A DNA stretch of 44,466 nt from assembly GCA_030684635.1 (NCBI GenBank), contig JAUXUW010000247.1, forward strand, positions 1-44,466. Direction: 5' to 3'. Positions 3,477 to 33,095 of this stretch are shown here, piece by piece (within the stretch, counting starts at the first letter, position 1; each line of letters starts with the position of its first letter). Made by a program: the position numbers and the translations under genes. This DNA is from Dehalococcoidia bacterium (GTDB taxonomy: Bacteria > Chloroflexota > Dehalococcoidia > UBA2979). Below the pieces are notes generated by a model. That model saw only the letters and a program-made list of their open reading frames with translations. It did not search any database and had not been told where the DNA came from.

Positions 3477-4706
3477 CTACGCGGGGACGCCTGCCGGCCG
3501 CGCGAGCAGATCGCCGGCGCGGCGCCACGCGAGGTACGCGACAAGGACCGCGGTCGCGTACACCAGAGAGGTCAGGCTCAGCGCGGTCGCCATCCCCAGC
3601 CGGTCGACGCCCAGGCCGACGACGGGCGTGATCAGGATGCTGCCCGCGCTCGCGACCACGCTGGCGACCGAGATCGTGGTAGCGCGCAGGCTGTCCGGTG
3701 CGCGCCTCGAGAGGTAGTCCGCGAAGTGCGGCCACATCACGTTCCACCCGAACGCCGGGAAGATGAATAGCGGATAGAGCCAGATGCTCCCGGGGATCAC
3801 GGCCAGCAGCGCCAGCGTGCTCAGGAGTGGCATCAGCAGGAAGGTCCGGCGCAGCGTCAGCCATCGCCCGAAGCGATCCGCGACCGCGGAGCCGAATGCG
3901 GCCACCGCCATCTGCAGCGCCACGAACAGGCCCACCGACCACAACGGCATTCCGGCGTCCACGACCAGGATCTGCTGCGTCACGCCGACGAGGGCGATTG
4001 AGAACGTCGTGAGCGCCATCAGCACGATCGCCGAGCGCAGCGGCGCGGAGCGGGCGACGCCGGAGAGCGCGAGGCGGCCCGTCTGCAGGTAGGAGTGGCG
4101 CTCGTCCTCACGCGGCGGCTCGTGCATCCGCCAGGCGAGCACGATCGCGGGGAGGCTCAGGGCCGCGCTCAGCAGGATCGGCGTCGTCAGTGGCGTCCAG
4201 CGGACCATGACGCTGCCGATCACCGTCCACGCGGCGATCGCGCTGAGGAGCAGCGCGTTCAGGCGGCCGTTCCAGGCGGTGAACTCGTCCTCGCGCCCCT
4301 CGCCTTTCAGCGAGTCGAAGAGCATCGCGCTGTCGGCGCCGGAGAACAGCGTCTCCGAGAAGCCGAAGAGCGCGTAGGCGAGGAGCAGTACGCCGATGAA
4401 CGGCGACAGCCCGAAGGCGAGGAACCCGAGGATCACCGTGACGCTGCCGACGATCAGCGAGGCACGGCGCCCGAAGCGGTCCGCCAGCATTCCCGTCGGC
4501 ACCTCGCCCAGCACGACGACGGCGGCGAAGACTGCCTCGAATAGCAGGACCTGGCCGAGCGTGAGTCCGCGCTCCCGGGTGAGGTAGAGCACCCAGATGC
4601 CCTCGCCGAGCCACGCCCAGCGAAAGACCCACCACCACGGCAGGAGTTTCAGGTTCCGCTGCATGGCGGAATGGGGCGGTGGCGGGGTGGCTGAGGCGTC
4701 GGTCAC
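3477..4706 (-). CDS. MFS transporter
   Basis: 409 aa and hydrophobic throughout, with about 12 segments. The MFS loop motif GMLADRFGRR recurs in the second half as VADRFGRW. Confidence 0.85.
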   Translation of the reverse strand: MTDASATPPPPHSAMQRNLKLLPWWWVFRWAWLGEGIWVLYLTRERGLTLGQVLLFEAVFAAVVVLGEVPTGMLADRFGRRASLIVGSVTVILGFLAFGLSPFIGVLLLAYALFGFSETLFSGADSAMLFDSLKGEGREDEFTAWNGRLNALLLSAIAAWTVIGSVMVRWTPLTTPILLSAALSLPAIVLAWRMHEPPREDERHSYLQTGRLALSGVARSAPLRSAIVLMALTTFSIALVGVTQQILVVDAGMPLWSVGLFVALQMAVAAFGSAVADRFGRWLTLRRTFLLMPLLSTLALLAVIPGSIWLYPLFIFPAFGWNVMWPHFADYLSRRAPDSLRATTISVASVVASAGSILITPVVGLGVDRLGMATALSLTSLVYATAVLVAYLAWRRAGDLLARPAGVPA

Positions 4707-4761: not shown

Positions 4762-5553
4762 CTATGGGAAGAGGTCGAGCGCCATCTCCCGCACGATCTC
4801 GGTCGCCGAGCCCTCGCCGCGGGTGTAGGCGAAGCCCCGCACGATCGCCGCCGGGATCGCGTCCAGTTTGCCCATCACCATCTCCGCCGCGCCGGCGATT
4901 TCGTCCGCGACACAGAGCAGCGTTACGCGCAGCTCGTGGCCGTCCAGGTCGCGCTGGCCGATGTAGTCGTGGAAGGGCTTCATCCCCGCCACGCCGATCG
5001 CCACGTTTGTCTGTCCCAGGCGCCAGGGCCGTCCGAAGGTGTCCGTCATCACCACGGCGACATCGATGTCCAGTCGCGCGCGGATGGCGTCGCGAATGCG
5101 GCGGCAGGAGGCGTCCGGGTCCACCGGGAGCAGGCAGACGAGATCCTGGCCGCCAGTGTTGGAGGCGTCCACACCGGCGTTGGCGCACTTCAGGCCGTGG
5201 TGCGTCTCCGTAATCAGCACGCCGCCGGCCTGACGGATGATCCGCTTCGACTCGCGGAGCACGGCCTCCACGACCCGCGGGTCCTTCTCCGTGCGCTGCG
5301 CGTAGTGGAGCGCGAACGGGCTGGGGACGAAGTGGTCCATCGGGTAGATGCGGCCCTCCGCCTTCGACACGATCCGCTGCGTGATGGCGACCACGTCGCC
5401 TTCCTGCAGCGGCGTGCCCTGCGCGGACGCGGCGGTGATCACCAGGTCGGCGATGTCGTCGTTCGGCTGCACCATCGGGATGCCGCGGACGCCGATCACC
5501 CGCACCTCGGGCGCGGACGGCGGGGGCGGCGGTGGGGTGGGGGTGGACGTCAT
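4762..5553 (-). CDS. cofE: Coenzyme F420-0:L-glutamate ligase (CofE / FbiB N-domain type)
   Basis: The core ...DVVAITQRIVSKAEGR...ITETHHGLKCANAGVDASN...VMTDTFGRPWRLGQTNVAIG...ADEIAGAAEMVMGK is characteristic of CofE. I placed the start at the internal ATG at 5553 (MTSTPTPPPP), which has GAGG upstream. The ORF track extends to 5721. Confidence 0.85.
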   Translation of the reverse strand: MTSTPTPPPPPPSAPEVRVIGVRGIPMVQPNDDIADLVITAASAQGTPLQEGDVVAITQRIVSKAEGRIYPMDHFVPSPFALHYAQRTEKDPRVVEAVLRESKRIIRQAGGVLITETHHGLKCANAGVDASNTGGQDLVCLLPVDPDASCRRIRDAIRARLDIDVAVVMTDTFGRPWRLGQTNVAIGVAGMKPFHDYIGQRDLDGHELRVTLLCVADEIAGAAEMVMGKLDAIPAAIVRGFAYTRGEGSATEIVREMALDLFP

Positions 5554-9142: not shown

Positions 9143-10762
9143 CTAGAAGACCGAGATCGTACCGACGCCGATGACCTTGCCGTCGGCGTGGAGTTCGAAC
9201 TCCCAGGTGCCGGCCTGGATCGGCTGGTCGCCCAGGTAGCCCACCCAGAACCGGGCACTCTCGCCCTCGGTCCACCGGATCGAGGGCGACGTGTATACGG
9301 GCTGGTTGTCCCGGAAGACCACCCACTGAAGCCGGCCGACGCTGCCCATGCCGCTCAGGTCGAAGATCGCGATTAACTGCGGCGCCGTCGCGTACGCGCC
9401 GATCGAGATGTTGCCCTCGGGCGTCACGGTCGTCGCCCCCGCGACCCCGATGGCCGTGGGTGTGTTCGAGGCCGTGACCGTGCCGCCGATGTTGACGGAG
9501 GCGGAGGCGCGCCGGGCGCCGTTCACCCAGACCTCCACGCGCCAGAGTCCGCGCGGGATACCGGCGGCGCCGGGCGACTGGATGCGGTCACTGATCAGCC
9601 CGTAGCCCGACTGGTCCCACACGAACGATGAGGAGAGCGAGTCCTGGAGGACGCTCTCCAGGTACCAGCGCTCTTCGACGGACGCGCCGATCGGGGCGCC
9701 CACGATCGAGTACTCGTAGTACAGGGCCGCCAGGCCCTCGTTGAAACGCGTGCCGTAGTCCAGCAGATCCCGGCCGCCGGCGGAGTCGACCGCATTTCCG
9801 GCGAAGGCAGGACGGCTCACCCAGATCCCATCCGGGGCGACGGTGGTGCCGCGGTAGAGCGGGGCGTTGAACGCGGCGGAGGAGGATCGTGCGCGGTCGA
9901 TAACCGGCGCTAGCAGGTCGCCCGGCCGTACCTGGCCGACCTCGCCGAGTGGGACGTAGATCTCCTGCGCCAGCATGCCGACGAGGGCGCCCGACTGGTC
10001 GAAGGCGGGGCCGCCCGAAGCACCGGCCGGGAGCCGGGCGTCCACCTTGAACCAGGTTCGCCCCGTCTGGCCCGCCTCGCCGCGCTGCCCGGTGACCTTG
10101 GCATTCGTGACGCTCACGGCGTCCGGGCCCTCTGAACCCCCGGCGTGGCTGAACAGCCGCAGTGGGACCCCCGTGTTGATGCCGGTAGCCTGGCCCGGGA
10201 CGACGGCAGGAATCTCCAGCGCGCCCACGCTCCCACCATCGCCCACCCGGCCCACGACGCGGAGCACAGCGACGCCCATGTCCACGTCTGCTGCAGCGAC
10301 CTCGGCCGTGAAGGTGCGGGTGGCAGGCGCGCCCGGATCGTCGTTGATGGCGATTTCGATCGAGGTATAGGCGCGGGAGCCGTCCGCGCGATATGGCGCG
10401 ACGACGGCGTAGGAGGTGAGGATCAACCGCTGTTCCGCGTCCACCACCACGCCGGAGCCGTACCGAGCGATCTGCTCAAAGCCCGCGCTCGTGTCGATGC
10501 CCAGCACCTGCACGACGGAGCGGGCCAGTTCATGGTCGGGGATGGCGGCGGCGGGCGTCCCGCCGGCGCCCACGTTCAGGCCCGGGGTCACGAGGATGGG
10601 GGTGGACTCCGCGGCCGGCGTTGGCGGCGGCGTACGCGGGTCGTCCGCGTTGCCCGGGATCAGCTCCGCGGTACGGTCGCAACCAACGAGGGCCAGCGCC
10701 GAGATCAGCGCCAGCCCCGTGAGAAGCCGTCGGAGGGATCGTGTCAGCCGCATCGCGTGCAA
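9143..10762 (-). CDS. Secreted trypsin-like (S1) serine protease lipoprotein with a C-terminal extension
   Basis: Lipobox LALVGC. The chymotrypsin-fold region has an active-site Ser context (GASGGPAFDQSGALVGM). About 240 C-terminal residues appear to form two related beta-rich modules, ending GLWRVEVWVNG... and GTWEFELHADG... Confidence 0.7.
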   Translation of the reverse strand: MHAMRLTRSLRRLLTGLALISALALVGCDRTAELIPGNADDPRTPPPTPAAESTPILVTPGLNVGAGGTPAAAIPDHELARSVVQVLGIDTSAGFEQIARYGSGVVVDAEQRLILTSYAVVAPYRADGSRAYTSIEIAINDDPGAPATRTFTAEVAAADVDMGVAVLRVVGRVGDGGSVGALEIPAVVPGQATGINTGVPLRLFSHAGGSEGPDAVSVTNAKVTGQRGEAGQTGRTWFKVDARLPAGASGGPAFDQSGALVGMLAQEIYVPLGEVGQVRPGDLLAPVIDRARSSSAAFNAPLYRGTTVAPDGIWVSRPAFAGNAVDSAGGRDLLDYGTRFNEGLAALYYEYSIVGAPIGASVEERWYLESVLQDSLSSSFVWDQSGYGLISDRIQSPGAAGIPRGLWRVEVWVNGARRASASVNIGGTVTASNTPTAIGVAGATTVTPEGNISIGAYATAPQLIAIFDLSGMGSVGRLQWVVFRDNQPVYTSPSIRWTEGESARFWVGYLGDQPIQAGTWEFELHADGKVIGVGTISVF

Positions 10763-11684: not shown

Positions 11685-11796
11685 ATCGGCCTGGCGACCG
11701 TTCGACTCGTTAGCAGTCGCTTCACGAGTTGCTCACTGGGGCTTGACCACTGAGCCCGATGATGCCCTCCTGAAGGTCTTCCGATGGAGGATGGTC

Positions 11797-12918
11797 ATGT
11801 CACAACCCTGGGTCCAGAAGGTCGGCATCGGTTCGCTCATCGTGGCGTCCATGCTCGTCGGTGGGGTCGTTACGGCACTGGTCGCCGGGGATGGCGGCGG
11901 CACGGGCGCGCCAGCCGTGGTCAGCGCGACCGCAGCGACCGAGGGCACCGTCCAGAACAGCGGTGACGTGGCCGCCGCTTCCCTGCCCGACCTGATCGCC
12001 GATGTGCGTCGCTCGGTGGTGGTCGTCACCGCCAGTGGAGGCGGCAACGCCACGAGCGGTGGGACCGGCTCGGTCATCGACCGTGATGGCCACATCCTCA
12101 CGAACTTCCACGTGATCGAGGGCATGTCGAACCTGAAGGTGACGCTGGCGGACGGCACCGCGGCCGTCGCGACTGTTGTCGGCACGGACCCGGGGAGCGA
12201 CCTGGCCGTCCTGAAGGTCGACCTGCCGTCCCACCTCCTGATCCCGGTGCGCATGGCCGACTCGGATCGCGTCCGCGTGGGTGACTCGGTGTTCGCGATT
12301 GGCCACCCGTTCGGCCAGAACTTCACGGTCACGTCCGGCATCATTAGCGCCACCGGTCGGGTCACGGAGTCCGCGTTCACCGGGCGAGGGATTCGGGATG
12401 TCCTGCAGGTGGACGCAGCCGTCAACCCGGGCAACTCCGGTGGCCCGCTGTTCAACGGTGCTGGCGAGATGGTCGGTGTGAACACCTCGATCGAGAACCC
12501 CAACGGCCGCTTCTTCGTCGGCCTGGGCTTCGCGGTCCCATCTAATACCGTGCTGCGTTTCCTGCCGGCGATGATCGCCGGCGAGACGATCGAGCACCCG
12601 CAACTGGGCGTCAGCGTACAGGCACTGGACGATGTGAACGCGGCGACTTTCGGGGTCAGCACGTCGCGAGGGCTGTACGTCCTACAGGTGACCGCAGGCT
12701 CGGCTGCGGAACGCGCGGGCGTCCTGCCCGGCTCCACCGGCTCCGGTCAGGGTGGCGACGTCATCCTCGCGATCAATGGTGAGGCGATGGAGTCGTTCGA
12801 AGCGCTGGCCCGCGTCATTGACCGCTCAGAGGTCGGTGACGTCGTCGCGCTCCGTGTCCGCCGGGGCACGGAGGAGCTGACGCTGGAGGCGACACTGCAG
12901 CCGTGGGACCTGCGATGA
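11797..12918 (+). CDS. htrA: HtrA/DegP-family serine protease with PDZ domain
   Basis: There is an N-terminal TM anchor. The catalytic triad contexts are ILTNFHVI, SDLAVLKV and GNSGGPLF, and a C-terminal PDZ is present (GLYVLQVTAGSAAERAGV...GDVILAINGE). GGAGG lies 6 nt before ATG 11797. In-frame alternative starts exist at 11791 and 11743. Confidence 0.85.
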   Translation: MSQPWVQKVGIGSLIVASMLVGGVVTALVAGDGGGTGAPAVVSATAATEGTVQNSGDVAAASLPDLIADVRRSVVVVTASGGGNATSGGTGSVIDRDGHILTNFHVIEGMSNLKVTLADGTAAVATVVGTDPGSDLAVLKVDLPSHLLIPVRMADSDRVRVGDSVFAIGHPFGQNFTVTSGIISATGRVTESAFTGRGIRDVLQVDAAVNPGNSGGPLFNGAGEMVGVNTSIENPNGRFFVGLGFAVPSNTVLRFLPAMIAGETIEHPQLGVSVQALDDVNAATFGVSTSRGLYVLQVTAGSAAERAGVLPGSTGSGQGGDVILAINGEAMESFEALARVIDRSEVGDVVALRVRRGTEELTLEATLQPWDLR

Positions 12919-12985: not shown

Positions 12986-13549
12986 TCAGGACTCGCCCGG
13001 TGGGGGTAGAGCAAGTGCGCGGCCCGCGACCAGCAGCCACGCGCGGTCGGCGGCGCGCGAGACCTGCTGGTTCACCCGTCCCAGCAGGTCTCGGTAGATC
13101 CGTCCCAGCGCGTACTCCGGGACGATCGCGCTGCCGACCTCGTTCGTGACGAAGATGATCGGCCCGCCGCGACGGCGCGCGGCCTCCAGCACCGCCGAGG
13201 TCTGTGCGTCCAGCGCGTGCTCCAGCGCCTCGACCGCCTCGCCCGAGGGGGCGTCGCCACCGAGGTCGAAGAGGTGGTTTGCCACCCAGAGCGAGAGGCA
13301 GTCGACGAGTACCGCGTCACCGTCGGGTTCGGCGGCAATCGTCTCGGCAAGGGCGCGGGGCGCCTCTACGGTGCGCCAGGTGGACGGACGTTGCGCGCGA
13401 TGCCGTTCTACGCGGGCGCGCAGTTCGTCGTCGCCGGCTTCCATAGTGGCCAGGTAGGTGACGGGCAGGCCGGTGCGGGCGGCGAGACGTTCGGCGTAGG
13501 TGGATTTTCCGCTGCGCGCGCCGCCAGTGACGAAGTCGATCTGTCCCAT
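12986..13549 (-). CDS. cobU: Adenosylcobinamide kinase / adenosylcobinamide-phosphate guanylyltransferase
   Basis: MGQIDFVTGGARSGKSTYAE is a P-loop. The size (187 aa) and the ...IFVTNEVG... motif are typical of CobU/CobP. Confidence 0.85.
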   Translation of the reverse strand: MGQIDFVTGGARSGKSTYAERLAARTGLPVTYLATMEAGDDELRARVERHRAQRPSTWRTVEAPRALAETIAAEPDGDAVLVDCLSLWVANHLFDLGGDAPSGEAVEALEHALDAQTSAVLEAARRRGGPIIFVTNEVGSAIVPEYALGRIYRDLLGRVNQQVSRAADRAWLLVAGRALALPPPGES

Positions 13550-13558
13550 CCAGCGGGC

Positions 13559-14332
13559 CTAGAAGAGCGCTGCCGTCGCCCAGCCGCGTTCGACCGAGGC
13601 GATGACCGCAAACCAGACCACGACCTGCGCGACCTCGATCCCCGCGCCGAAGACATCGCCGGTCACGCCGTGGATCAGGCGGGACGCCGCACCCGCGATC
13701 AGGACCGCGGCGACGCCCGCGATGAGGACGAGGACGAGGCCGGCGACGCCAAACGTTGTTCCCGCGACCGCAAGGGCGGTCAGCGTGGCGATGGGCGCGG
13801 CGGTGGGCCACAGCCCGGCGTGGATCGAGTGACCGAGGCCGCGCGGACGGGCGGGGTGGAAGAGCGCGCCGACCGGCACGACCGTCCAGCGGGCAAGCAC
13901 GGGCGCGACGATCAGCGCAGCGGCGCGCGCGTCCGGCGGGAGCGAGGAGATCGCGGCCCACTCCGCCAGAAGCACGAGCACCAGCGCCATCACGCCGGCC
14001 GGGCCGGTGTTGCCCTCGCTCATCACGCCCAGGCGCTCGGCGCGGTCGCCCTGCACCGCCATGCCGTCCGCGGTGTCCGCGACGCCGTCCAGGTGGAGGC
14101 CGCCCGACACGAGCGCAAGCACGGCGACCAGCAGCGCCGCGGCCGGGGCGGGCGGGAGCAACTCGGTGAGCCCACGGTCCAGCAGGGCGAGGACGCCACC
14201 GATCAGCAGGCCGATGAGCGGATACCACCCCAGCGCCTGCGCGAACGTACGGTCGTCGTAGGTCTGCACGCGGCGCAGGCGCAGCGGCGTGAGGAACTCG
14301 AGGGCGATCGGGATCGCGGCCAGTGTGCGCAC
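13559..14332 (-). CDS. cobS: Adenosylcobinamide-GDP ribazoletransferase (cobalamin synthase)
   Basis: 257-aa polytopic membrane protein with an N-terminal FLTPLRL-type motif and HLDGVADTADG, characteristic of CobS. Confidence 0.85.
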   Translation of the reverse strand: MRTLAAIPIALEFLTPLRLRRVQTYDDRTFAQALGWYPLIGLLIGGVLALLDRGLTELLPPAPAAALLVAVLALVSGGLHLDGVADTADGMAVQGDRAERLGVMSEGNTGPAGVMALVLVLLAEWAAISSLPPDARAAALIVAPVLARWTVVPVGALFHPARPRGLGHSIHAGLWPTAAPIATLTALAVAGTTFGVAGLVLVLIAGVAAVLIAGAASRLIHGVTGDVFGAGIEVAQVVVWFAVIASVERGWATAALF

Positions 14333-14334
14333 GC

Positions 14335-15429
14335 TCAGGCCTCCGGCTCGATGACCTCGTCGGAATCGGACACGCCCGCCTCCGCGAACGTCGCCATCTC
14401 GTCCAGCAGCCGGCAGGCGGCGACGCAGAGCGACATCCCCAGGGCTGCGCCACTGCCTTCGCCCAGGCGCATCCCCAGGTCCAGCAGGGGTTCCAGGCGC
14501 AGATGCTCAAGCGTCGCGGCGTGTCCGGGCTCGGCCGAGCGGTGCGAGGCGATGAACACCCCCCGTGCGTCCGGCGCGATCGCTTCCGCGATCAGCGCCG
14601 CCGCGCCGGAGATCACGCCATCGATCACCGCCGGCACGCGAGCCGCCGCCGCGCCGAGGTACACGCCGGCCAGGACGCCGATCTCGAAACCGCCGATGCC
14701 TGCAAGCATGCCGATGCCGTCCGTCGGGTCGGGCTGGTTCACCTCCAGCGCGCGCTCAATGACACGCACCTTGCGGTCGTACCGCTCGTCGTCGACGCCG
14801 GTCCCGCGGCCGGTGACGGCACGGGGCGGGCGCCCCGTGGCCGTGGCGATGATGGCGGCGGCTGGCGTGGTGTTGCCGATCCCCATCTCACCGAGGGCGA
14901 CGATGTCGCAGCCGGCGGCGTGTTCCGCCTGGAAGAGCGCGATGCCCTCCGCGACTGCGCGCTCGGCGAGGGCGCGGCTCATCGCCGGGCCCTCTGTGAT
15001 GTCGGCGGTACCGGGGCCGAGGCGGAGGCGGATCAGGTCGGGGTGCATCGGGGTATCAAGGGCGACGCCAGCGTCCACGATGCGCACGCGTGCGCCCGCG
15101 TGTGCGGCCAGCACGTTGATCGCGGCACCGCCCGCCAGGAAGTTGCCCACCATCTGCACGGTGACCTCGGCGGGGTAGGCGGAGACACCCTGCGCCGTCA
15201 CGCCGTGGTCGCCCGCCGCGACGATTACCACGCGGTGGTCGAGGCGGGGACGCTCCTGTCCCGTGATCCCGGCGATGCGCGTGGCCAGGTCCTCCAGACG
15301 TCCCAGCGACCCCGGCGGTTTCGTGAGCTGGCCCTGTCGCGACTCGGCGCGGGTGATCGCCACCGTGTCCGCCGGGCGGATCGAGGCGGCCGTCTCGCGG
15401 ATCAGGGCGGCGTGGTCGGTCGTGGGCAT
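14335..15429 (-). CDS. cobT: Nicotinate-nucleotide--dimethylbenzimidazole phosphoribosyltransferase
   Basis: LTKPPGSLGRLEDLA lies about 35 aa after the ATG at 15429, and GEMGIGNTTPAAAI is present. The ORF-track extension to 16254 runs antisense through the GNAT gene and is rejected. Confidence 0.85.
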   Translation of the reverse strand: MPTTDHAALIRETAASIRPADTVAITRAESRQGQLTKPPGSLGRLEDLATRIAGITGQERPRLDHRVVIVAAGDHGVTAQGVSAYPAEVTVQMVGNFLAGGAAINVLAAHAGARVRIVDAGVALDTPMHPDLIRLRLGPGTADITEGPAMSRALAERAVAEGIALFQAEHAAGCDIVALGEMGIGNTTPAAAIIATATGRPPRAVTGRGTGVDDERYDRKVRVIERALEVNQPDPTDGIGMLAGIGGFEIGVLAGVYLGAAAARVPAVIDGVISGAAALIAEAIAPDARGVFIASHRSAEPGHAATLEHLRLEPLLDLGMRLGEGSGAALGMSLCVAACRLLDEMATFAEAGVSDSDEVIEPEA

Positions 15430-15659
15430 GGCGGCGTTTCGGCTGGTAACGGTGTCGGAGGGCCAGTGTACCCGCCCGACCGACCTCGGGCTGCGCCCGT
15501 TGACGGAGGCACGGTGCCATCCGTAGGCTCGCGGCATGACGGACGTGGTACCCGGTACGACGCGCGCGACGACTGCTGGCGCCCTGGTGGCGACGGCTGA
15601 GCGGGCGCGTGGCGTGGGGGTCTCGGCCGGTAGGTAGCAGCAGCACCGCCAGCAGCCGA

Positions 15660-15683: not shown

Positions 15684-15717
15684 CTGCGTTACTGGCGTGC
15701 GGAGCGGGAGGGCAACC

Positions 15718-16296
15718 GTGCCGATCAAGGGTGAGTTGATCCGCCTGAGACCGCTGGAGCCGGCGGATGCGGAGCGCTACGTCCGGTGGCTGAACGACCC
15801 GGAGGTGACCCGCACGCTGGCCGTCCGCTTCCCCCTGGGCTCGGAGCCCGAGCGCGCGATCATCGAGCGGATGGCGAAGCATGCCGGCTACCGGGACGTG
15901 AACTTCGCGATCGAGGTCCGTGAGACCGGCGAGCACATTGGCACGGTGGGCGTCAGCGACTCCTACCGGGAGAGCCGGTGGGGCACGTTGGGCATCGTGA
16001 TCGGCGCGAAGGAGCACTGGGGCCGGGGCTACGGGGAGGACGCGCTCCGCGAGATGCTGCGCTTCGCCTTCTGGGAGATGAACCTGGACACCGTCCGGCT
16101 GGAGGTCTACGCGAGCAACGCCCGCGCCCGCGACCTCTACGAGCGGGTCGGGTTCGTGGTGGAGGGGCGGAAGCGGGCCGCTGTGCTCCGCGGCGGCGAG
16201 CAGATTGATGTGGATGTGATGTCGGTGACGCGCGAGGAGTTCGAGGCGCAGCACGGGGCGCCGCCGGACCTGCGGGAGCGGAAGGTGCTCCCGTGA
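15718..16296 (+). CDS. GNAT family N-acetyltransferase (RimJ/RimL-like)
   Basis: IRLRPLEPADAERYVRWLNDPEV... and the acetyl-CoA region HWGRGYGEDALREML...RVGF are present. GTG 15718 is preceded by GGGAGGG. An upstream GTG at 15697 is also possible. Confidence 0.8.
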   Translation: MPIKGELIRLRPLEPADAERYVRWLNDPEVTRTLAVRFPLGSEPERAIIERMAKHAGYRDVNFAIEVRETGEHIGTVGVSDSYRESRWGTLGIVIGAKEHWGRGYGEDALREMLRFAFWEMNLDTVRLEVYASNARARDLYERVGFVVEGRKRAAVLRGGEQIDVDVMSVTREEFEAQHGAPPDLRERKVLP

Positions 16297-16886
16297 CCTC
16301 CTCGCCGATCACGCTGCCCTCGCTGATCCGGGGGGACCTGGTCCGCCTGGTGCCCGCGGAATTGTGGATGGCGCCGCGCTTCGCCGCGTGGATGAACGAG
16401 CCGGACACGGTGCACCTGATGGGTGGCGTCGCCTACCCCATCTCGCTTGCCGCGGAGGAGGACTGGGTACGTACCCGCCTGGAGTCGTCGTGGGACGACG
16501 GCGTGTTCCTGGCGATCGAGGCGATCGACGGCTCGGAGGCGCTCGTCATCGGGACGATCGAACTGCGCCACCTCAACGCGGAGGCGCGGCGCGGGGAGGT
16601 CGGGATCCTCATCGGCGAGCCCGAGTACCGCGGGGGTGGCTACGGCACGGAGGCGACGGCGTTGCTGTGCGGGTTCGCCTTCGCCGAACTCGGCCTCCAA
16701 CGGATCGAACTGAATACGTCCGAGTTCAACACACGCGCGGTGCGGGCCTACGAGAAGGTCGGCTTCGTCCTCGAAGGTCGCCAGCGGCGGCGCACCCACA
16801 TCGCCGGCCGCTACTACGACGTACTGCTGATGGGGCTGCTGCGCGAAGAGTTCCGGGGCGCGCCATCCCGCGAGCCACGGCCGTGA
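16293..16886 (+). CDS. GNAT family N-acetyltransferase (RimJ/RimL-like), paralogue of the preceding gene
   Basis: The GTG start overlaps the previous stop (GTGA). VRLVPAELWMAPRFAAWMNEPD..., YRGGGYGTEATALL and ...KVGF are present. Confidence 0.8.
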   Translation: MTSSPITLPSLIRGDLVRLVPAELWMAPRFAAWMNEPDTVHLMGGVAYPISLAAEEDWVRTRLESSWDDGVFLAIEAIDGSEALVIGTIELRHLNAEARRGEVGILIGEPEYRGGGYGTEATALLCGFAFAELGLQRIELNTSEFNTRAVRAYEKVGFVLEGRQRRRTHIAGRYYDVLLMGLLREEFRGAPSREPRP

Positions 16887-17679: not shown

Positions 17680-17707
17680 TTGACAGGCTGATCGTGATGG
17701 TTATGCT
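17680..17707 (+). promoter_or_regulatory. Sigma-70-type promoter candidate in an AT-rich island
   Basis: TTGACA (17680-17685), a 16-nt spacer, then TATGCT (17702-17707). It lies about 50 nt upstream of the riboswitch aptamer and is flanked by inverted repeats at 17645-17663 and 17708-17721. Confidence 0.5.
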
Positions 17708-17754
17708 CTTGTTGTCACAAGCACGAATCTTGCACATACGTAATACTCGTGCTG

Positions 17755-17885
17755 GTGGCCTGCTTAATCGTCACGCGCTCAGCGCACGGCGACCGGGGGA
17801 ACCAACGACTGGGGTGAATCCTCCCACGGGAGGACGGGCGTACTGAACCGGCCCGAACCCGACAGCTAACCTCGGAGGCAGTCTG
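17755..17885 (+). ncRNA. ydaO/yuaA-class riboswitch (c-di-AMP sensing) aptamer
   Basis: Four ordered conserved blocks are present: CUGCUUAAUC (17760-17769), GGGGGAACCA (17795-17804), GGGGUGAAUCC (17811-17821) and CCCGAACCCGACAGCUAACCUCGGAGGCAG (17852-17881). CUGCUU can pair with AGGCAG to form a closing P1. The element sits in the 5' leader of the ORF at 17949. Confidence 0.8.
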
Positions 17886-17948
17886 GGTCAGCCCGACCGG
17901 CGGGATGCCGGATGCGGACGAAACCAGTATGAGTGAAGGAGGGCCGCC

Positions 17949-18161
17949 ATGATCGTGAGCGCCCCGCCGAAGAAGTGCCCCCGCTGCCAGGGCCTGATGA
18001 TTATCGAGGACGACTGGTACGGCCAGTTCGGCACGTGCGTAGCCTGTGGCTACGTCCACGAGGCCCAGCGCTGTGACCCGAAGGACCTCGAAGAGGAAGA
18101 GCGATTGGCCGCGGGCAAGCAGCGCCGCCGCCAGCCGTCCCACGGCAAGCTCCGCCTCTAG
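17949..18161 (+). CDS. Small C4 zinc-ribbon protein (70 aa) with a basic C-terminal tail, function unknown
   Basis: A strong SD (AAGGAGGG) lies 5 nt before the ATG. The Cys pattern is CPRC-N16-CVAC, followed by an acidic patch (DLEEEE) and then KQRRRQPSHGKLRL. The ORF is followed by a terminator hairpin. Confidence 0.6.
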   Translation: MIVSAPPKKCPRCQGLMIIEDDWYGQFGTCVACGYVHEAQRCDPKDLEEEERLAAGKQRRRQPSHGKLRL

Positions 18162-18188
18162 TCCCTTCCGCCCCGCGGAACTCCTTCA

Positions 18189-18213
18189 GGCGTCGCCGGA
18201 ATCCGGCGACGCC
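18189..18213 (+). terminator. Terminator-like hairpin after the zinc-ribbon ORF
   Basis: GGCGTCGCCGG-aat-CCGGCGACGCC is a perfect 11-bp stem, followed by GTTGG. Confidence 0.55.
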
Positions 18214-18299
18214 GTTGGCGTGCCCGCCGGTGCGCCCTATGCTCCCGTCCACGATTCGCTGACGCTCAGGGTGAGCACCCAGCCAGGAGAGAAGGTCCC

Positions 18300-18608
18300 A
18301 TGCCATACGTCCGCATCACGACGATGATCGCACGCACCGGCGAGGAGCAGCGGCTCGAGAAGACCATGCGGGAGCTTTCCGCGTTCTACGCGAAGCAGCC
18401 CGGGTACGTTCACGGCTACATGCTGATGCCGCACCACGACGCCTCGCCTCGGCGGTTCGGCCGGATCGGTGTGTGGCAGGACGAGAAGTCGGCCACGGAT
18501 GCCGCGCAACTGGACCACGCACTGGCGCTCCGCTCCGAGCTCCTGCGGATCCTGGTGGAGGAACTCCATGACGAGTACTCCTTCATCGGGGAGCCTGACG
18601 CCGTCTAG
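18300..18608 (+). CDS. ABM (antibiotic biosynthesis monooxygenase / Dabb) fold protein
   Basis: 102 aa. MPYVRITTMIARTGEEQRLEKTMRELSAFYAKQPGYV...GRIGVWQDEKSA is the typical ferredoxin-like ABM pattern. The SD is AGGAGAGAAGG. Confidence 0.6.
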   Translation: MPYVRITTMIARTGEEQRLEKTMRELSAFYAKQPGYVHGYMLMPHHDASPRRFGRIGVWQDEKSATDAAQLDHALALRSELLRILVEELHDEYSFIGEPDAV

Positions 18609-18786: not shown

Positions 18787-19545
18787 ATGAATGAACGCAT
18801 GCCCACCGCGCCCATTGCCCGCAGCCGCCCGATGACGCGGAGCGGGCAGCGCATCCGCATCCTGGTCGCCGATGATCACGCGCTGCTGCGGCAGGCGCTC
18901 CGGATGCTCCTGGAGGCCCAGGACGGCCTGGAGGTGGTGGGCGAGGCGACCAACGGCCGAGACGCCGTGGAGGTCGCAGAGCGGCTCATGCCGGACGTGA
19001 TCCTCATGGACATGGTCATGCCCGGCCTGAACGGCATCGAGGCGACCCGACAGATCCTGAAGCGCGCCCCCGGGTGCCGCGTCCTGATCCTCACCGCCTA
19101 CCTGGAGGATGAGCGTCTGCTCCAGGCGCTGCGCGCTGGTGCGGCCGGCTACGTCGTGAAGAACTCCGACATGGAGGAACTCCTCCTGGCGATCCAGTCC
19201 GTGTTCCGCGGCAACACCTACTTCTCCACCTCGGTCTCCGACGAGATCTCGGTGAACGAGGTGATGATGCAGGCGAAGCAGACGGAGGGCCGGGCCGGCT
19301 ACGACCTGCTCACGCCGCGCGAGCGGGAAGTGCTCCAGTTGATCGCAGAAGGCCTGTCCAACCAGGCGATCGCGGACGAACTGGTGATCAGCGTGAAGAC
19401 CGTGGAGGCGCACCGCGCCCACATCATGACCAAGCTTCACGCGAAGAACCGCACGGACCTGATCCGCTACGCGATCAAGCGCGGGCTGGTCGGGCTCGAC
19501 TCGGACGACGCGGGCGAAACGGACTCCGACCGCCGCGCGGTCTAG
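18787..19545 (+). CDS. Response regulator, NarL/LuxR (DegU-like) family
   Basis: The REC domain is present (ILVADDHALLRQ...VILMDMVMPGLNG...ILTAY) with a C-terminal LuxR HTH (LTPREREVLQLIAEGLSNQAIADELVISVKTVEAHRAHIMTKL). No histidine kinase gene is adjacent. Confidence 0.85.
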   Translation: MNERMPTAPIARSRPMTRSGQRIRILVADDHALLRQALRMLLEAQDGLEVVGEATNGRDAVEVAERLMPDVILMDMVMPGLNGIEATRQILKRAPGCRVLILTAYLEDERLLQALRAGAAGYVVKNSDMEELLLAIQSVFRGNTYFSTSVSDEISVNEVMMQAKQTEGRAGYDLLTPREREVLQLIAEGLSNQAIADELVISVKTVEAHRAHIMTKLHAKNRTDLIRYAIKRGLVGLDSDDAGETDSDRRAV

Positions 19546-29017: not shown

Positions 29018-31129
29018 ATGGCGGCAGCACGGACATCGGCGCGCAGGGACACCACGGACGTGGGGTTGCTCTCCATCATCACGCGCAATTCGGACGTGGC
29101 GCTGGCGATCACGGTGCTCGCGGTCATCGGCCTCATGATCGTGCCGGTGCCGCCGATGGTGCTGAGCCTGCTGATCGTCGCCAACTTCGCCGCCTCCGTC
29201 ACGATCATGCTGATCGCGATGTACACGCGGGAGGTGCTGTCGTTCAGCGTCTTCCCATCCCTCCTGTTGCTGGTCACGCTCTTCCGCCTGGCGATCAACA
29301 TCGCCTCGACGCGCCTGATCCTGCTCTATGGCGACGCCGGCTCGGTCATCGATGCGTTCGGTGAGTTCGTGATCGGCGGCTCGCTGATCGTCGGCATCGT
29401 GGTGTTCCTCATCCTGCTCGTGATCCAGTTCGTGGTGATCACGAACGGTGCCGGCCGGGTCGCGGAGGTCGCCGCCCGGTTCACCCTGGACGCCATGCCC
29501 GGCAAGCAGATGTCGATCGATGCCGACCTGAACGCCGGCCTCATCTCAGACACCGAGGCGCGGACGCGCCGGGCGAAGATCTCCGCGGAAGCGGACTTCT
29601 ACGGCGCGATGGACGGCGCCTCCAAGTTCGTGAAGGGCGACGCGGTCGCCGGGCTGATCATCACCTCGATCAACCTCATCGGCGGCATGACGATCGGGAT
29701 CATGCAGCAAGGGCTTGCGCCGGGGGAGGCGGTCTCCGCCTTCTCCATCCTGACCGTCGGCGACGGCCTCGTCTCGCAGATCCCGGCGCTCCTGGTCTCG
29801 ACCGCGACGGGCATCATCGTGACCCGCGCGGCGTCCGAGGGCCACCTGGGTCAGGACATCGGCGGGCAGTTGTTCTCCAACCCGCGCGTCATGTTCATCG
29901 TCGCGGGCATCCTGACAACCTTTGGCCTAGTACCGGGACTTCCCCGATCCCCGTTCTTCATCATCGCGGCCATCATGGGAGGCGCCGGGTACCTTCTCCG
30001 CCAGCGCCAGCGGGCGCGGGCGGTGGAAGTGGCCGAGGCCCGCGAGGTTGAAGACCGGGATGAAGCGCAGAGCGTGGACTCCGTGGTCAACATGCTCCGG
30101 GTTGATCCGCTGGAGGTGGAGGTCGGATACGGCCTCATCCCGCTGGTGGACGGCGAACACGGCGGGAATCTGCTGCACCGGATCACCATCATGCGACGTC
30201 AGATCGCCACGGACCTTGGCATTGTGGTCCCGATGATCCGGATTCGGGACAACCTGTCGTTGCCCGCGAACCAGTACGTCTTGAAGCTGCGCGGTATCGA
30301 AATCGGCGGCGGCCAGCTCCTCGCCGGCCAGTTTCTGGCGATGGACTCCGGCCTGGCGACGGCAGAGATCGCCGGCACGGCCACGACCGAACCGGCCTTC
30401 GGCCTCCCGGCGCGCTGGATTGCCCCCGCGGACAAGCAACAGGCCGAGTTCCTGGGCTACACGGTGGTCGACCCGCCGTCCGTCCTCATTACTCACGTCT
30501 CGGAACTCATCAAGCGGCACTCGCCGGAACTGCTGTCCCGCCAGGATGTGCAGACGCTCCTCAACCACCTCAAGGAGGAGTATCCAGCCGTGGTGGACGA
30601 GCTGGTCCCCGGCATCCTCACCGTGGGCGAGGTGCAGGGCGTCCTGCAGTTGCTGCTGGCCGAGGGCGTCTCCGTCCGCGACCTGGTCACCATCGCCGAG
30701 ACGCTGGCCGACCTGGGCCGCCAGACGAAGGAGATCGAGGCGCTGACGGAGGGTGTCCGCACTGCGCTGGCGCGCCAGATCACCATGCAGCACCGCGCCG
30801 CGGACAACCGCATCCATGCCATGACGCTGAACCCGCGCCTGGAGCAATCGCTCGCGCAGGCGCTGACGCCCACGGACGCCGGGATGGCGCTCGTGGTGTC
30901 GCCGGACCTGCTGCAGCGACTGCTGACGGCGGTCGCGGCACAACTCGAACGCGCCGCTGCCCAGGGCCGGCAGCCGGTCTTGCTCACGTCCAGCCGCATC
31001 CGGCGGCCGCTCCGACGGCTGCTTGAGCGTTCCGTACCGGCGTTGCCGGTGATCGCCTTCGCGGAGATCGCGCGCGAGGTCGAGGTGGAAGCGATCGCAC
31101 AGGTGGAGGTGGAATATGCAGCAGCCTAA
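29018..31129 (+). CDS. flhA: Flagellar export apparatus protein FlhA
   Basis: 703 aa. The FHIPEP region is present (RFTLDAMPGKQMSIDADLNAGLI...FYGAMDGASKFVKGDAVAG), with a cytoplasmic C-terminal domain. Confidence 0.9.
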   Translation: MAAARTSARRDTTDVGLLSIITRNSDVALAITVLAVIGLMIVPVPPMVLSLLIVANFAASVTIMLIAMYTREVLSFSVFPSLLLLVTLFRLAINIASTRLILLYGDAGSVIDAFGEFVIGGSLIVGIVVFLILLVIQFVVITNGAGRVAEVAARFTLDAMPGKQMSIDADLNAGLISDTEARTRRAKISAEADFYGAMDGASKFVKGDAVAGLIITSINLIGGMTIGIMQQGLAPGEAVSAFSILTVGDGLVSQIPALLVSTATGIIVTRAASEGHLGQDIGGQLFSNPRVMFIVAGILTTFGLVPGLPRSPFFIIAAIMGGAGYLLRQRQRARAVEVAEAREVEDRDEAQSVDSVVNMLRVDPLEVEVGYGLIPLVDGEHGGNLLHRITIMRRQIATDLGIVVPMIRIRDNLSLPANQYVLKLRGIEIGGGQLLAGQFLAMDSGLATAEIAGTATTEPAFGLPARWIAPADKQQAEFLGYTVVDPPSVLITHVSELIKRHSPELLSRQDVQTLLNHLKEEYPAVVDELVPGILTVGEVQGVLQLLLAEGVSVRDLVTIAETLADLGRQTKEIEALTEGVRTALARQITMQHRAADNRIHAMTLNPRLEQSLAQALTPTDAGMALVVSPDLLQRLLTAVAAQLERAAAQGRQPVLLTSSRIRRPLRRLLERSVPALPVIAFAEIAREVEVEAIAQVEVEYAAA

Positions 31130-32429
31130 GCGGTTCCAGGCAGGCACGCTGGCCGAGGCGTACGACAAGGTGCGCCGCGAACTGGGTGCGGACGCCGTGA
31201 TCCTCTCCACCCGCAAGGCGTATGCACCGGGGCTCTTTGGCCAGCCGGGCCGGCAGTTCGTGGAGGTGGTTGCACACCTTCCCACGGTCGCCGAGGCCGC
31301 ACCCACGGGACGCCGCCCCATGCTGGAGCAGGACCTGGCGGCGCACGACATGATCCGTGCGGTCGCGGAGGCCACGGCCGCCGCTCCGCTCGAGGAGTCG
31401 AAGCCTGCCCCTGCCACGCACTCCGGGTTCCTGCGTGCCGCTGCCGCCGCGGACCCAGAGGAGTCCGAGTCGGAGGTCGCCCGTCAGTCGCTGCCTGCCG
31501 CTGAACTGGCGCCGCTCAGCCGGCAACTGGACCAGATGCGCACGCTCCTGGAGTCCCTGGTCGCGGACCGTGCCGGCGCGCGCATGGACGCGGCCCCGGC
31601 CGCTGCCCGCGACCTGCGCGACCGCCTGATCCGCCACGGCGTCTCGCCGCGCCTGGCTGCGACCATCCTCGGCGAGGCCGGGGAGGCCGTGGTGCGCGCC
31701 GACAACGTGGACGCGATGGCGCGGACGGTCGAGCGCAAGATCGCCGCGAAGCTGCCGCAGACGAGCACGCCGACGTTCGGGCGCCGCCCGCTGGCGATCT
31801 TCCTCGTGGGCCCCGGAGGCGCCGGCAAGACCACGGTCGCCGTGCGCCTGGGCCTGGAACTGGAGCGCGCCAACGGCCTGCGCGTGGCGCTGGCCGGCAC
31901 GGACGTGAACCGTGCGGGTGCGCCGCAGCAGCTGCTGGCGTATGGCGCCGCGACCGGGCTGCCCGTGCACCTGTGCTACGGCCCGGAGGAACTCGATGAG
32001 TTGCTCCGGTCGGGCAGCGCCGACGTCGTGGTCGTGGACACCCCCGGCCACAATGGCCTGAAGCGCGACCGCATGGCGGAACTCAGCGCCTTCCTCGGGG
32101 TCGCGCGCACCAGGTCCGTGTTGCTCACCCTGCCGGCGACGATGAAGGGGAGTGACCTCACGGATGTCGTCGCAGCCTTCAGCACCGTGGGTGTGGATGG
32201 TCTGGTCGCGACCCGTTGCGACGAGACCTCGCACTTCGGCGCGCTGGTGGACGTGGCCGTGGATGCCGCAATCGGCTTCGCGTACACCACGCACTCCGAC
32301 CAGGTGAGCGAGGCTCCGCGGACTGCGGACAACCTGGCCCTGGCCACGGCGGTCGTGGCAGCCGAATGGACTGCGCCTTCGCCGGTGAACGCCGCGTCAG
32401 CGCCGCGTCGATTGGCACGGGTGGGCTAG
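31116..32429 (+). CDS. flhF: Flagellar biosynthesis GTPase FlhF (SRP-type)
   Basis: The N-terminal B-domain is MQQPKRFQAGTLAEAYDKVRRELG. The SRP-GTPase motifs are LVGPGGAGKTT, VVDTPG and TRCDET. The gene overlaps the flhA end by 14 nt. Confidence 0.85.
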   Translation: MQQPKRFQAGTLAEAYDKVRRELGADAVILSTRKAYAPGLFGQPGRQFVEVVAHLPTVAEAAPTGRRPMLEQDLAAHDMIRAVAEATAAAPLEESKPAPATHSGFLRAAAAADPEESESEVARQSLPAAELAPLSRQLDQMRTLLESLVADRAGARMDAAPAAARDLRDRLIRHGVSPRLAATILGEAGEAVVRADNVDAMARTVERKIAAKLPQTSTPTFGRRPLAIFLVGPGGAGKTTVAVRLGLELERANGLRVALAGTDVNRAGAPQQLLAYGAATGLPVHLCYGPEELDELLRSGSADVVVVDTPGHNGLKRDRMAELSAFLGVARTRSVLLTLPATMKGSDLTDVVAAFSTVGVDGLVATRCDETSHFGALVDVAVDAAIGFAYTTHSDQVSEAPRTADNLALATAVVAAEWTAPSPVNAASAPRRLARVG

Positions 32430-32435
32430 CCGGGC

Positions 32436-33095
32436 GTGTCCTCCTTCATCGACCTCAAGCCCGGTACACGGGTGAACGTGACCCCCCCGGAGGATCCGGG
32501 AGGGGCCACATACGAGTGCACCATCCGCCAGGTGACCCCTCGCGGCATGCGCCTGAGCACGCCGCGGCGTGATGGCGAGGTGCTGGAGGTCGTCCCGGGC
32601 GAAGAGCTGGCGATGTTCACCATGCTCCACGGGCGGGTCTACCGCTTCCAGGTGGCCGTGCGCCTGGTGGAGTTCACCGAGTACGACAGCATCACCGTGG
32701 AACTCCCGGCAGAGGCGGAGCGTACGGAGCGACGTGCGTACTACCGCCTGCCAACCCGCATCGAGCCGCGCCTCGCCATGCGCCTGGACGATGCGGGGAA
32801 GGAAGTCCAGCGGCTGAACGTGACGGTCATGGACATGTCGGGCGGCGGCATGCTGCTGCAGGTGCGGGAGTACATTCCGTCCGGCGCCCGCATCCGCATC
32901 GTGCTGGAACTGGAGGGCGAGCCGCTGGAGTTGGACATGCTGATGCAGGCCCTCAGCGTGCAGCGCCCCTCGACCTCCGCCCAGTACTACCGCGTGAACA
33001 GCCAGTTCATCGATCCCGACCGCCGGGAGCGCGAGCGCGTGGTCCGCTACATCTTTCGCCAGCAAGTGGAGATGCGACGCAAGGGGGTCATCTAG
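32436..33095 (+). CDS. PilZ-domain c-di-GMP receptor, YcgR/MotI-like flagellar brake candidate
   Basis: The PilZ motifs RRAYYR (RxxxR) and DMSGGG (DxSxxG) are correctly spaced in the C-terminal half. The N-terminal ~95 aa resemble a PilZN/YcgR-N barrel. The start is GTG. Confidence 0.75.
   Translation: MSSFIDLKPGTRVNVTPPEDPGGATYECTIRQVTPRGMRLSTPRRDGEVLEVVPGEELAMFTMLHGRVYRFQVAVRLVEFTEYDSITVELPAEAERTERRAYYRLPTRIEPRLAMRLDDAGKEVQRLNVTVMDMSGGGMLLQVREYIPSGARIRIVLELEGEPLELDMLMQALSVQRPSTSAQYYRVNSQFIDPDRRERERVVRYIFRQQVEMRRKGVI

Follow-up and report, generated by a model that had tools for sequence, protein, structure and literature searches.

Riboswitches that bind cyclic di-adenosine monophosphate (c-di-AMP) are signposts to the regulon of this molecule, which so far comprises K+/osmolyte transport and cell-wall remodelling. 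The question raised by the locus analysed here is what such an RNA controls when the gene that follows it encodes a 70-residue zinc-ribbon protein (the miniprotein). The locus lies in contig JAUXUW010000247.1 of a Dehalococcoidia bacterium, the 44,466 nucleotides (nt) of which are referred to in full as the window and are numbered on the forward (+) strand. A preliminary description of this DNA had proposed that a riboswitch of the ydaO class controls the small gene on its own, and that the product might be an uncharacterised effector, a word that we retain as a hypothesis. The analysis reported below leaves very little doubt about the identity of the riboswitch and of its cargo; the riboswitch is an ordinary one, and its cargo is new, uncharacterised and probably regulatory. 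The structural inferences are computational throughout.

A riboswitch tied to one small gene

We have scanned the whole 44.5-kb window against 4227 Rfam families and observed that a single match reaches its gathering score, that of RF00379, the ydaO/kimA class of c-di-AMP riboswitches, at positions 17751–17895 of the + strand. The match scores 77.2 bits (expectation value, E, 2.3e-16), which is twice the gathering score of 38 bits, and covers all 134 positions of the model (1–134), so that the class assigned beforehand by eye is upheld by the Infernal search. Also the four sequence blocks that had been listed as typical of the class are present where they had been placed, CUGCUUAAUC at 17760–17769, GGGGGAACCA at 17795–17804, GGGGUGAAUCC at 17811–17821 and CCCGAACCCGACAGCUAACCUCGGAGGCAG at 17852–17881, as is the possible pairing of CUGCUU with AGGCAG that closes helix P1, whose 5' strand starts at 17760 and whose 3' strand runs to 17881. 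The aptamer lies in the 5' untranslated region, on the strand of the gene, and 53 nt separate the end of the Rfam match from the ATG.

The aptamer helices are upheld by compensatory changes. For the comparison of orthologues we have built our own covariance model from seven family aptamers, meaning that the alignment is fitted to a family-derived model; among 79 distinct orthologous aptamers, the 18 modelled pairs are paired in 98.7% of cases and seven of them show double changes, which fill 103 cells where 21 would be expected; none of 500 shuffles attains these values. A further element, not annotated in the Rfam structure line of RF00379, is a pseudoknot between the loop CUGAACCG (17843–17850) of the last aptamer hairpin (GGGC 17836–17839 / GCCC 17851–17854) and the segment UGGGUCAG (17884–17891) of the tail that follows P1, which is still inside the Rfam match and is the actual 3' boundary of the aptamer. 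Pairing of the 3'-proximal hairpin loop with the post-P1 tail is a feature of this riboswitch class. In 44 distinct sequences 79% of the pseudoknot cells are paired, against 15–40% in slid registers, and the covariation score amounts to 0.256 against 0.135 (0 of 500 shuffles), three of the nine pairs having anchored the register and being thus invariant by construction; one position varies between A-U (23), C-G (9) and G-C (3). Taken sequence by sequence, the pairing has a median z of −1.8 relative to shuffles, with p≤0.05 in 53% of cases. By its sequence and predicted structure the RNA is thus a full member of the c-di-AMP class.

The association of this RNA with the gene is found wherever related loci could be inspected. 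A collection of 5.8 billion proteins contains 48 close relatives of the miniprotein, those with a source name all being called 'hypothetical protein', and the named organisms among them belong to Chloroflexota, bar one labelled 'bacterium HR25'. We have fetched 14 of the encoding loci (55–98% identity, at least five neighbourhoods), 13 of which have sufficient upstream DNA, and RF00379 precedes the open reading frame (ORF) in 13 of 13, at 70–82 bits; these independent Rfam calls span the most divergent loci. A scan of GTDB, with one genome per species, retrieved 408 stretches coding for a relative. Within the closest 80 of these (74–100% identity), which are labelled nearly all as Dehalococcoidia or Chloroflexota metagenome-assembled genomes, with one 'uncultured bacterium', our covariance model matched 80 of 80, at 70–132 bits, once each and on the + strand, the match ending 40–75 nt before the ORF. 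Altogether the aptamer is situated 40–95 nt upstream in all 94 testable related loci (55–100% protein identity), and the recurrence that had been put forward as a check on the riboswitch-ORF pair is thus seen at every related locus tested. A contig of 'Chloroflexi bacterium HGW-Chloroflexi-9', PHBR01000057.1, is 94.8% identical to the window over 5.2 kb. The unit is carried also by complete chromosomes, among them OZ252250.1, OY839116.1, OZ253555.1 and OZ241365.1.

Riboswitch and gene are therefore inseparable in a clade of Chloroflexota, mostly Dehalococcoidia, and the strictness of this linkage is notable. Since the loci share ancestry, the association may have been inherited rather than repeatedly selected; that it is kept across changing neighbourhoods, and that the RNA undergoes compensatory changes, speaks for a function. 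The distant or fused members of the protein family described below lack a riboswitch at all four contigs fetched (L095, L096, L100 and L101 in our numbering of loci), which restricts the link to one orthologous clade, of at least about 55% identity, rather than the whole family.

The gene itself occupies positions 17949–18161 (+), with the ATG at 17949, the stop codon at 18159–18161 and a Shine-Dalgarno (SD) sequence, GGAGGG (17938–17943), 5 nt ahead of the start; the leaders of relatives likewise have a purine-rich, SD-like sequence before the start codon. The encoded protein consists of a zinc ribbon, CPRC...CVAC (residues 10–33), of an acidic helix at about residues 44–55, and of a basic tail, QRRRQPSHGKLRL (residues 58–70, window 18120–18158). 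SD, start codon and the spacing CxxC-N16-CxxC, provided by C10, C13, C30 and C33, had all been pointed out before and are borne out. Across 86 distinct coding sequences the median pairwise ratio of nonsynonymous to synonymous substitution (dN/dS) is 0.136, as expected for a conserved ORF under purifying selection, and the 13 residues of the tail are invariant, with two to five synonymous codons per position, which indicates that the constraint is on the protein and not on an overlapping RNA element. Invariant are also the four cysteines, P11, R12, G15, E20, D22, G25, G34 and V36. Versions of 54–55 residues found in databases are considered to be mis-called starts, because the frame can always be followed upstream, past CPRC, to a start codon with an SD ahead of it. 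On this pattern of substitution the ORF can be taken as a real, translated and selected gene.

This bears directly on the possibility that the ORF is incidental, the leader acting in trans as a terminated RNA or the aptamer being a relic. In some bacteria terminated riboswitch RNAs do act in trans, and no model tested for the coupling of the present aptamer to its gene reached significance. However, a dN/dS of this order, invariant residues amid freely changing synonymous sites, the conserved SD and start codon, and aptamer helices and a pseudoknot maintained by compensatory changes all stand against it, and we judge it to be extremely improbable.

Control of the unit

The best explanation that we can offer for the locus is that positions 17680–18213 form a self-contained transcription unit, conserved as a block. 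A strong, constitutive promoter of the sigma-70 type would drive a leader composed of a 5' stem-loop, the aptamer with its pseudoknot and a short hairpin, followed by the SD, the gene and a terminator-like hairpin. The liganded aptamer would lower the output of this one small gene, the post-aptamer hairpin being the likely off element, with a U-rich tract in some relatives that is absent in the high-GC window. The miniprotein would be neither a transporter nor a hydrolase but a small regulatory adaptor acting in trans, whose zinc ribbon may present an invariant, disordered and basic C-terminal peptide for docking on a very conserved partner; leading candidates would be the transcription machinery, a regulator of LuxR/sigma-4 type, or nucleic acid. 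As a whole, off logic and adaptor included, we hold this explanation to be fairly probable.

The promoter, TTGACA-16-TATGCT, had already been recognised, and is located at 17680–17707 (+; TTGACA 17680–17685, TATGCT 17702–17707), with 10 of 12 consensus matches; the predicted start of transcription is at about 17714. It is the only sigma-70-like site between 17400 and 18700, where shuffles lead to an expectation of 0.1, and a perfect TTGACA, a spacer of 16–18 nt and a TAnnnT −10 box (10–11 of 12 matches) are shared by all of the 73 distinct regions compared upstream of related loci. The transcribed leader that follows, CTTGTTGTCACAAGCACGAA (17708–17759, +), is also conserved: the motif GTCACAA(T/G)CAC (also written GTCACAATCAC) lies directly 3' of the −10 box in most lineages, and so does, in its longer form, CTTGTTGTCACAA(T/G)CACGAA. 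In minimum free energy (MFE) folds of 69 distinct leaders this motif is the 5' arm of a hairpin, which in the window involves GUCAC (17714–17718) and AGCACGA (17720–17726) with UCGUGCU (17747–17753) and GUGGC (17755–17759), and which abuts P1. This 5'-terminal hairpin could stabilise the mRNA, or serve as an operator or as a site to which a protein binds.

From the pseudoknot to the SD, the sole conserved element is a short hairpin, in the window CCGGC (17897–17901), loop GGGAU and GCCGG (17907–17911) on the + strand. Of 71 distinct platforms, about 60 have a hairpin 13–18 nt past P1; its stem exists in 27 versions, among which CCGGA/UCCGG, CCGGU/ACCGG, CUCCAG/CUGGAG and GCCAGC/GCUGGC. In 43 of the 71 the 5' arm and loop contain CCGGNGG, and the closing base pair covaries; a conserved loop with a covarying closing pair is odd for a plain terminator and hints at contact with a protein or at a tertiary interaction. 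In 10 of the 71 platforms, mostly from lower-GC lineages, the hairpin is followed by a U-rich tract (at least five U in 8 nt), which the window and most high-GC relatives lack. Two loci (L006 and L009) have textbook intrinsic terminators with seven of eight U, and two others (L012 and L055) have the hairpin followed by GUUUUG. In the window the hairpin is followed by AUGCGGAC and, after the next 26 nt, by the SD.

Several results weigh against the explanation given above. No hairpin-plus-U-tract terminator is present in the window from aptamer to start codon (17896–17948), as had been noted before; none of the switching models tested, whether anti-SD, antiterminator, or a helix of the pseudoknot strand with the segment before the SD, reached significance; accessibility of the SD zone is equal in crude 'bound' and 'free' fold proxies (0.42 vs 0.39); and in L012, L055, L006 and L009 the 3' strand of the pseudoknot also pairs beside or into the SD or the U-tract region (z about −1.8 to −2.0), a geometry that would equally fit an ON switch. 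To these have to be added the reach of the aptamer scan in GTDB, that is the closest 80 of 408 matches, and the weakness of the likenesses of the protein that are described in the next section. As the switching models failed and the proxies are equal, the off logic has been taken from the characterised members of the class, all of which are, to our knowledge, off switches; by this analogy binding of c-di-AMP would probably lower expression, and the miniprotein would be made when c-di-AMP is low. A termination role of the post-aptamer hairpin is plausible, although unproven, since the terminator-like hairpins at the 3' end of these loci are commonly devoid of U tails.

The absence of a U-tract terminator in the window is also an argument for translational control, in which ligand-dependent formation of the aptamer and pseudoknot would alter access to the SD, possibly in the ON direction and with no termination. 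The second partner of the pseudoknot strand in the four loci just named agrees with this, as does the fact that (U)CCUCC (17819–17824) can pair with GGAGG(G). The hint that had been drawn from the complementarity of CCUCCC and GGAGGG did not survive closer analysis: CCUCCC is the direct and not the reverse complement of the SD, so that antiparallel pairing is limited to the segment indicated, and a complementarity of at least 5 nt to the SD zone is kept in only 18 of 68 relatives. The CCUCC segment, moreover, serves as the 5' arm of a hairpin inside the aptamer, where it covaries with its own partner, and the anti-SD was rejected as a conserved mechanism. By eye, the post-P1 tail seemed to covary with the segment adjacent to the SD (CUGGAUC/GAUUCCAG, CCGGAU/AUCCGG), as in an 'outer helix'; this pairing exceeds shuffles (p≤0.05) in 9% of sequences only, and the tail was identified as a strand of the pseudoknot. 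With equal SD accessibility in both proxies and off switches as the only precedent known to us, we consider translational control to be unlikely.

Two other approaches to the platform gave no switching element. An antiterminator proposed by RNAalifold, pairing the aptamer 3' strands (CCYCGG) with the hairpin arm CCGGNGGG, was discarded, as it reaches p≤0.05 against composition-matched shuffles in 3–7% of cases. MFE folding of the whole leader was uninformative (z = +0.6), which is expected because the aptamer is pseudoknotted, and the z values of MFE for the platform are mostly non-significant (median −0.8).

At the 3' end, the perfect 11-bp hairpin that had been described is present at 18189–18213 (+; arms 18189–18199 and 18203–18213, GGCGUCGCCGG-AAU-CCGGCGACGCC); it is GC-rich, has no U tail and is likely to be the end of the unit. 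Of 89 distinct 3' regions, 51% have a hairpin of at least 10 bp within 110 nt of the stop codon, a frequency 12-fold above that in shuffles (4%). In these related loci the hairpins after the stop codon are perfect, GC-rich, mostly U-less and 8–21 bp long, with stems that differ between lineages; only 10 of the 89 have four or more T within the 8 nt that follow a stem of 6 bp or longer. This suggests that U-less hairpins are common terminators in these organisms.

The unit can thus be set beside two known leaders. It shares with the Bacillus subtilis kimA (ydaO) leader class all the blocks, P1, the internal helices, the pseudoknot and the position in the 5' untranslated region, and differs from it in the cargo, which is a 70-residue zinc-ribbon protein and not a K+/osmolyte transporter or a cell-wall hydrolase, in having no hairpin-plus-U-tract terminator in the window, and in the extra conserved hairpins, one 5' and a short one 3', that flank the aptamer. 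The leader of Streptomyces rpfA, which encodes a secreted muralytic enzyme, is a c-di-AMP riboswitch of a high-GC actinobacterium that has no recognisable intrinsic terminator. The present leader resembles it in the high-GC host, the aptamer class and the terminator-less platform, the phylum (Chloroflexota) and the cargo being different.

The miniprotein, its relatives and its candidate partners

That the cargo falls outside the usual regulon, as had been argued, agrees with our searches: no Pfam or NCBIfam family reaches its cut-off for the miniprotein, and matches in PHROGs are restricted to families of unknown function (E≥0.0009). In a full-text search, which did not extend to the supplementary gene lists of the founding papers, no paper was found that ties the RF00379 class to a zinc-ribbon protein or to targets in Chloroflexota. 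The sub-threshold matches in Pfam and NCBIfam are all ribbons of the TFIIB, RPB9, TFS or Spt4 type. The similarity is weak, with 24.5 bits for PF08271 (TFIIB) against a gathering threshold of 29 (E 2e-05) and 20.3 against 25.2 bits for PF02150; some relatives bear a precomputed weak match to PF08271, and among PDB sequences 1pft, a TFIIB zinc ribbon, matches best (E 0.0016).

The AlphaFold2 model, computed with the family alignment, has strands at residues 16–22, 25–30 and 36–39, the acidic helix at 44–55 and a low-confidence tail, with a mean predicted local distance difference test score of 74. Foldseek matches to this model are ZifS, RPC10, RPB9, TFIIB and Elf1 ribbons, which are mainly RNA-polymerase-associated, and are weak (E≥0.04, template-modelling (TM) score about 0.38). 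From sequence and model together, the miniprotein is predicted to be a TFIIB/TFS-like zinc ribbon. It has the four cysteines, the three strands and the size of the TFIIB/TFB, TFS/RPB9/RPC10 and Spt4/Elf1 ribbons (PF08271, PF02150), and differs from them in being bacterial, stand-alone and below threshold, and in the acidic helix and QRRRQPSHGKLRL tail, which have no counterpart there. The top Foldseek match, ZifS of Thermus thermophilus (TTHA0897, 8yoz), is like the miniprotein a stand-alone bacterial zinc protein, of about 77 residues; the match is weak (E 0.042, TM score 0.38, root-mean-square deviation 5.3, 27% identity over 48 columns), and ZifS did not come up, at E≤10, when PDB sequences were searched with the profile. 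We found no literature on the function of ZifS/TTHA0897 and know of no link between it and a riboswitch.

When 1.84 billion representative proteins were searched with a profile, 1664 relatives emerged at E≤0.001, 86 of them at E≤1e-10. Many are small and have the same C-terminus, R-R-x-P-S-H-G-x-[LI]-[RK]-L. In others the ribbon and tail stand, with small variations, at the extreme C-terminus of proteins of 190–736 residues (P0062, P0064, P0075, P0078, P0114 and others in our numbering; loci L095 and L096 encode such fusion proteins), whose N-terminal parts contain one to several units of the form 'NPW.L..E..T.L.L....G.S..EIA..LY'. Compared with the PDB, a profile of the unit meets only LuxR/GerE helix-turn-helix (HTH) domains and sigma-70 region 4, in matches that are weak and uniform (E 0.008–1.6); the repeat profile can also be aligned, in register, to the GerE domain of the response regulator encoded in the window, and sub-threshold Sigma70_r4 and extracytoplasmic-function sigma matches concur. 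A search with the long-form protein P0075 led to singletons on short contigs only.

Two further distant members stand in other surroundings. In L100 a 68-residue member with the end HGKLRL (5001–5207) is translationally coupled within a phage-like block (HNH, Dam methylase, AAA_25, terminase large subunit), and L101 has tandem paralogues (4774–4983 and 5001–5207) with a Fic-domain gene on one side and that of an ATP-dependent DNA ligase on the other, the conserved tail being present in the second only. No relative was confirmed in IMG/VR viral contigs searched with the family profile. As to the tail alone, a search of PDB sequences with it gave no match, and a proposed likeness of the tail (QPS..HG..R.) to the N-terminus of bL34 was found to be unsupported (hhalign probability 0.3%).

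From this anatomy a function as regulatory adaptor can be put forward tentatively for the miniprotein. The frozen tail and its recurrence at the ends of HTH proteins and in a phage-like contig fit a docking peptide for a very conserved machine, and a partner in the transcription apparatus or of LuxR/sigma-4 type is favoured because of the type of ribbon, the HTH fusions and the phage-like copy. One possible relay, which we advance as a conjecture with the odds against it, would be that at low c-di-AMP the miniprotein accumulates and its tail and ribbon dock on RNA polymerase or on regulators of LuxR/sigma-4 type. This is suggested by the fusion of HTH proteins to the same ribbon and tail, a Rosetta-stone argument, and by the presence of a GerE regulator within 3 kb in half of the loci; were the relay true, the phage-borne copy would make use of that docking site too. 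A precedent for such a mode of action is given by P2 Ogr and P4 Delta, small zinc-finger transcription activators of phages. Like them the miniprotein is a stand-alone zinc protein of about 70 residues, with a copy in a phage-like setting (L100) and a proposed docking on host transcription; unlike them it has another cysteine spacing, and there is no Ogr/Delta Pfam match at E≤0.1; the likeness concerns a possible mode of action and not membership.

Genomic context and significance

The neighbourhood of the unit has been surveyed in 95 loci. In the window the upstream side is occupied by the corrinoid salvage genes cobU-cobS-cobT, which are divergent (12986–15430, −), and, between cobT and the unit, by a pair of tandem overlapping GNAT (Acetyltransf_3) genes (15697–16296 and 16293–16886, +) and by an S-adenosylmethionine-dependent methyltransferase gene that ends at 17632 (+); close relatives have at this place the methyltransferase alone or nothing. 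In 74 of the 95 loci the unit has a divergent corrinoid salvage gene next to it on the upstream side, namely cobT (56 loci), a btuF-like gene (15) or the gene of a PduO-type adenosyltransferase (3). In L011 a cobalamin riboswitch (RF00174, 40.1 bits, 3482–3622, −) faces the opposite way in the same intergenic region.

Downstream, after a gap of 138 nt and with a separate SD, the window has a 102-residue gene (18300–18608, +) with a faint match to ABM (antibiotic biosynthesis monooxygenase-like), for which a weak TTGGCG-17-TATGCT at 18213–18243 could serve as promoter. It is followed by a GerE-type (18787–19545) and a stand-alone response regulator and by a flagellar cluster, FlbD-MotAB-FliLMNOPQR-FlhBAF, with FlhA at 29018–31129 (+) and FlhF at 31116–32429 (+). 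Then come a YcgR-like protein with PilZNR and PilZ domains (32436–33095, +), a FliA-like sigma factor (33442–34263, +) and an anti-sigma factor of RskA_C type (34736–35362, +); rod and hook genes and a flagellin-like gene are encountered farther downstream. Among the tested genes the nearest one downstream is ABM-like in 36 of the 95 loci, a convergent leuA in 29 and a GerE regulator in 14; counted as the next gene, the convergent leuA is found in 29–31 loci. A GerE-type response regulator is within 3 kb in 47 loci, and FliW or CsrA lies downstream in a few. A conserved second cistron was rejected, the small downstream ORFs of L006 and L010 not being homologous to the ABM-like gene, and only that of L011 being so.

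These data allow an alternative to be weighed in which the miniprotein is merely the first cistron of a longer operon, with read-through past 18189–18213 that would take in the ABM-like gene and both response regulators, and perhaps extend to the flagellar genes. All these genes are on the strand of the unit, the ABM-like gene and the GerE-type regulator recur at the frequencies just given, and the 3' hairpin has no U tail. However, the riboswitch-ORF pair is unchanged where a convergent leuA or, elsewhere, unrelated neighbours follow; long perfect hairpins after the stop codon are far commoner than chance; and the ABM-like gene is set off by its gap and its own SD. We find such an operon unlikely. 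The next gene being convergent in about 30 loci, the miniprotein is to be seen as the regulated cargo, and the monocistronic unit that had been proposed is effectively that, given also the conserved promoter and the 3' hairpin. The adjacency to regulators and flagellar genes, on which the preliminary description had remarked, is true for the window, where the PilZ gene is real, and turns out to be one of several contexts among the 95 loci: as neighbours vary while the pair stays, the invariant is the riboswitch with its miniprotein.

Genes for trypsin-like/HtrA-like (Trypsin_2 + PDZ) proteases are situated upstream of the unit at 9143–10762 (−) and 11743–12918 (+), and in several lineages (L001–L005, L097–L099) such genes are kept a few genes upstream. 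The C-terminal L-R-L of the miniprotein could in principle be a PDZ ligand.

A role within c-di-AMP or osmotic homeostasis can also be envisaged, with the tail modulating a cyclase, a phosphodiesterase, a gating domain of a K+ transporter or a PDZ protease in a feedback. The regulon of the class, dominated by K+/osmolyte and envelope functions (PMC7266159), speaks for it; so do a tail that invariably closes the protein, with L-R-L as its last residues, as PDZ and other partners reading C-termini require, the recurrence of HtrA-like Trypsin-PDZ genes a few genes off, and an HD-domain gene adjoining two family members. On the other hand, genes of such partners are never constant neighbours in the 95 loci, the fusions are to HTH and not to signalling or transport domains, and one homologue sits in the replication module of a phage-like contig. 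We therefore consider a homeostatic role to be quite improbable, and return to the self-contained unit with a regulatory cargo as the preferred explanation.

In this clade, which is abundant in the environment and almost uncultured, the same RNA is tied without exception, in at least 94 loci, to one tiny protein that has no name in databases. Should the protein turn out to be mundane, it would still be a clean new member of the regulon of a known riboswitch class. If the proposed explanation is true, a small regulatory protein would be a new kind of c-di-AMP output, a function would be gained for a family of hundreds of members, and the unit would provide a compact promoter-riboswitch-reporter cassette from high-GC Chloroflexota. 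Under the relay conjectured above, a cascade from riboswitch to protein regulator might possibly be the main output of c-di-AMP in Dehalococcoidia.

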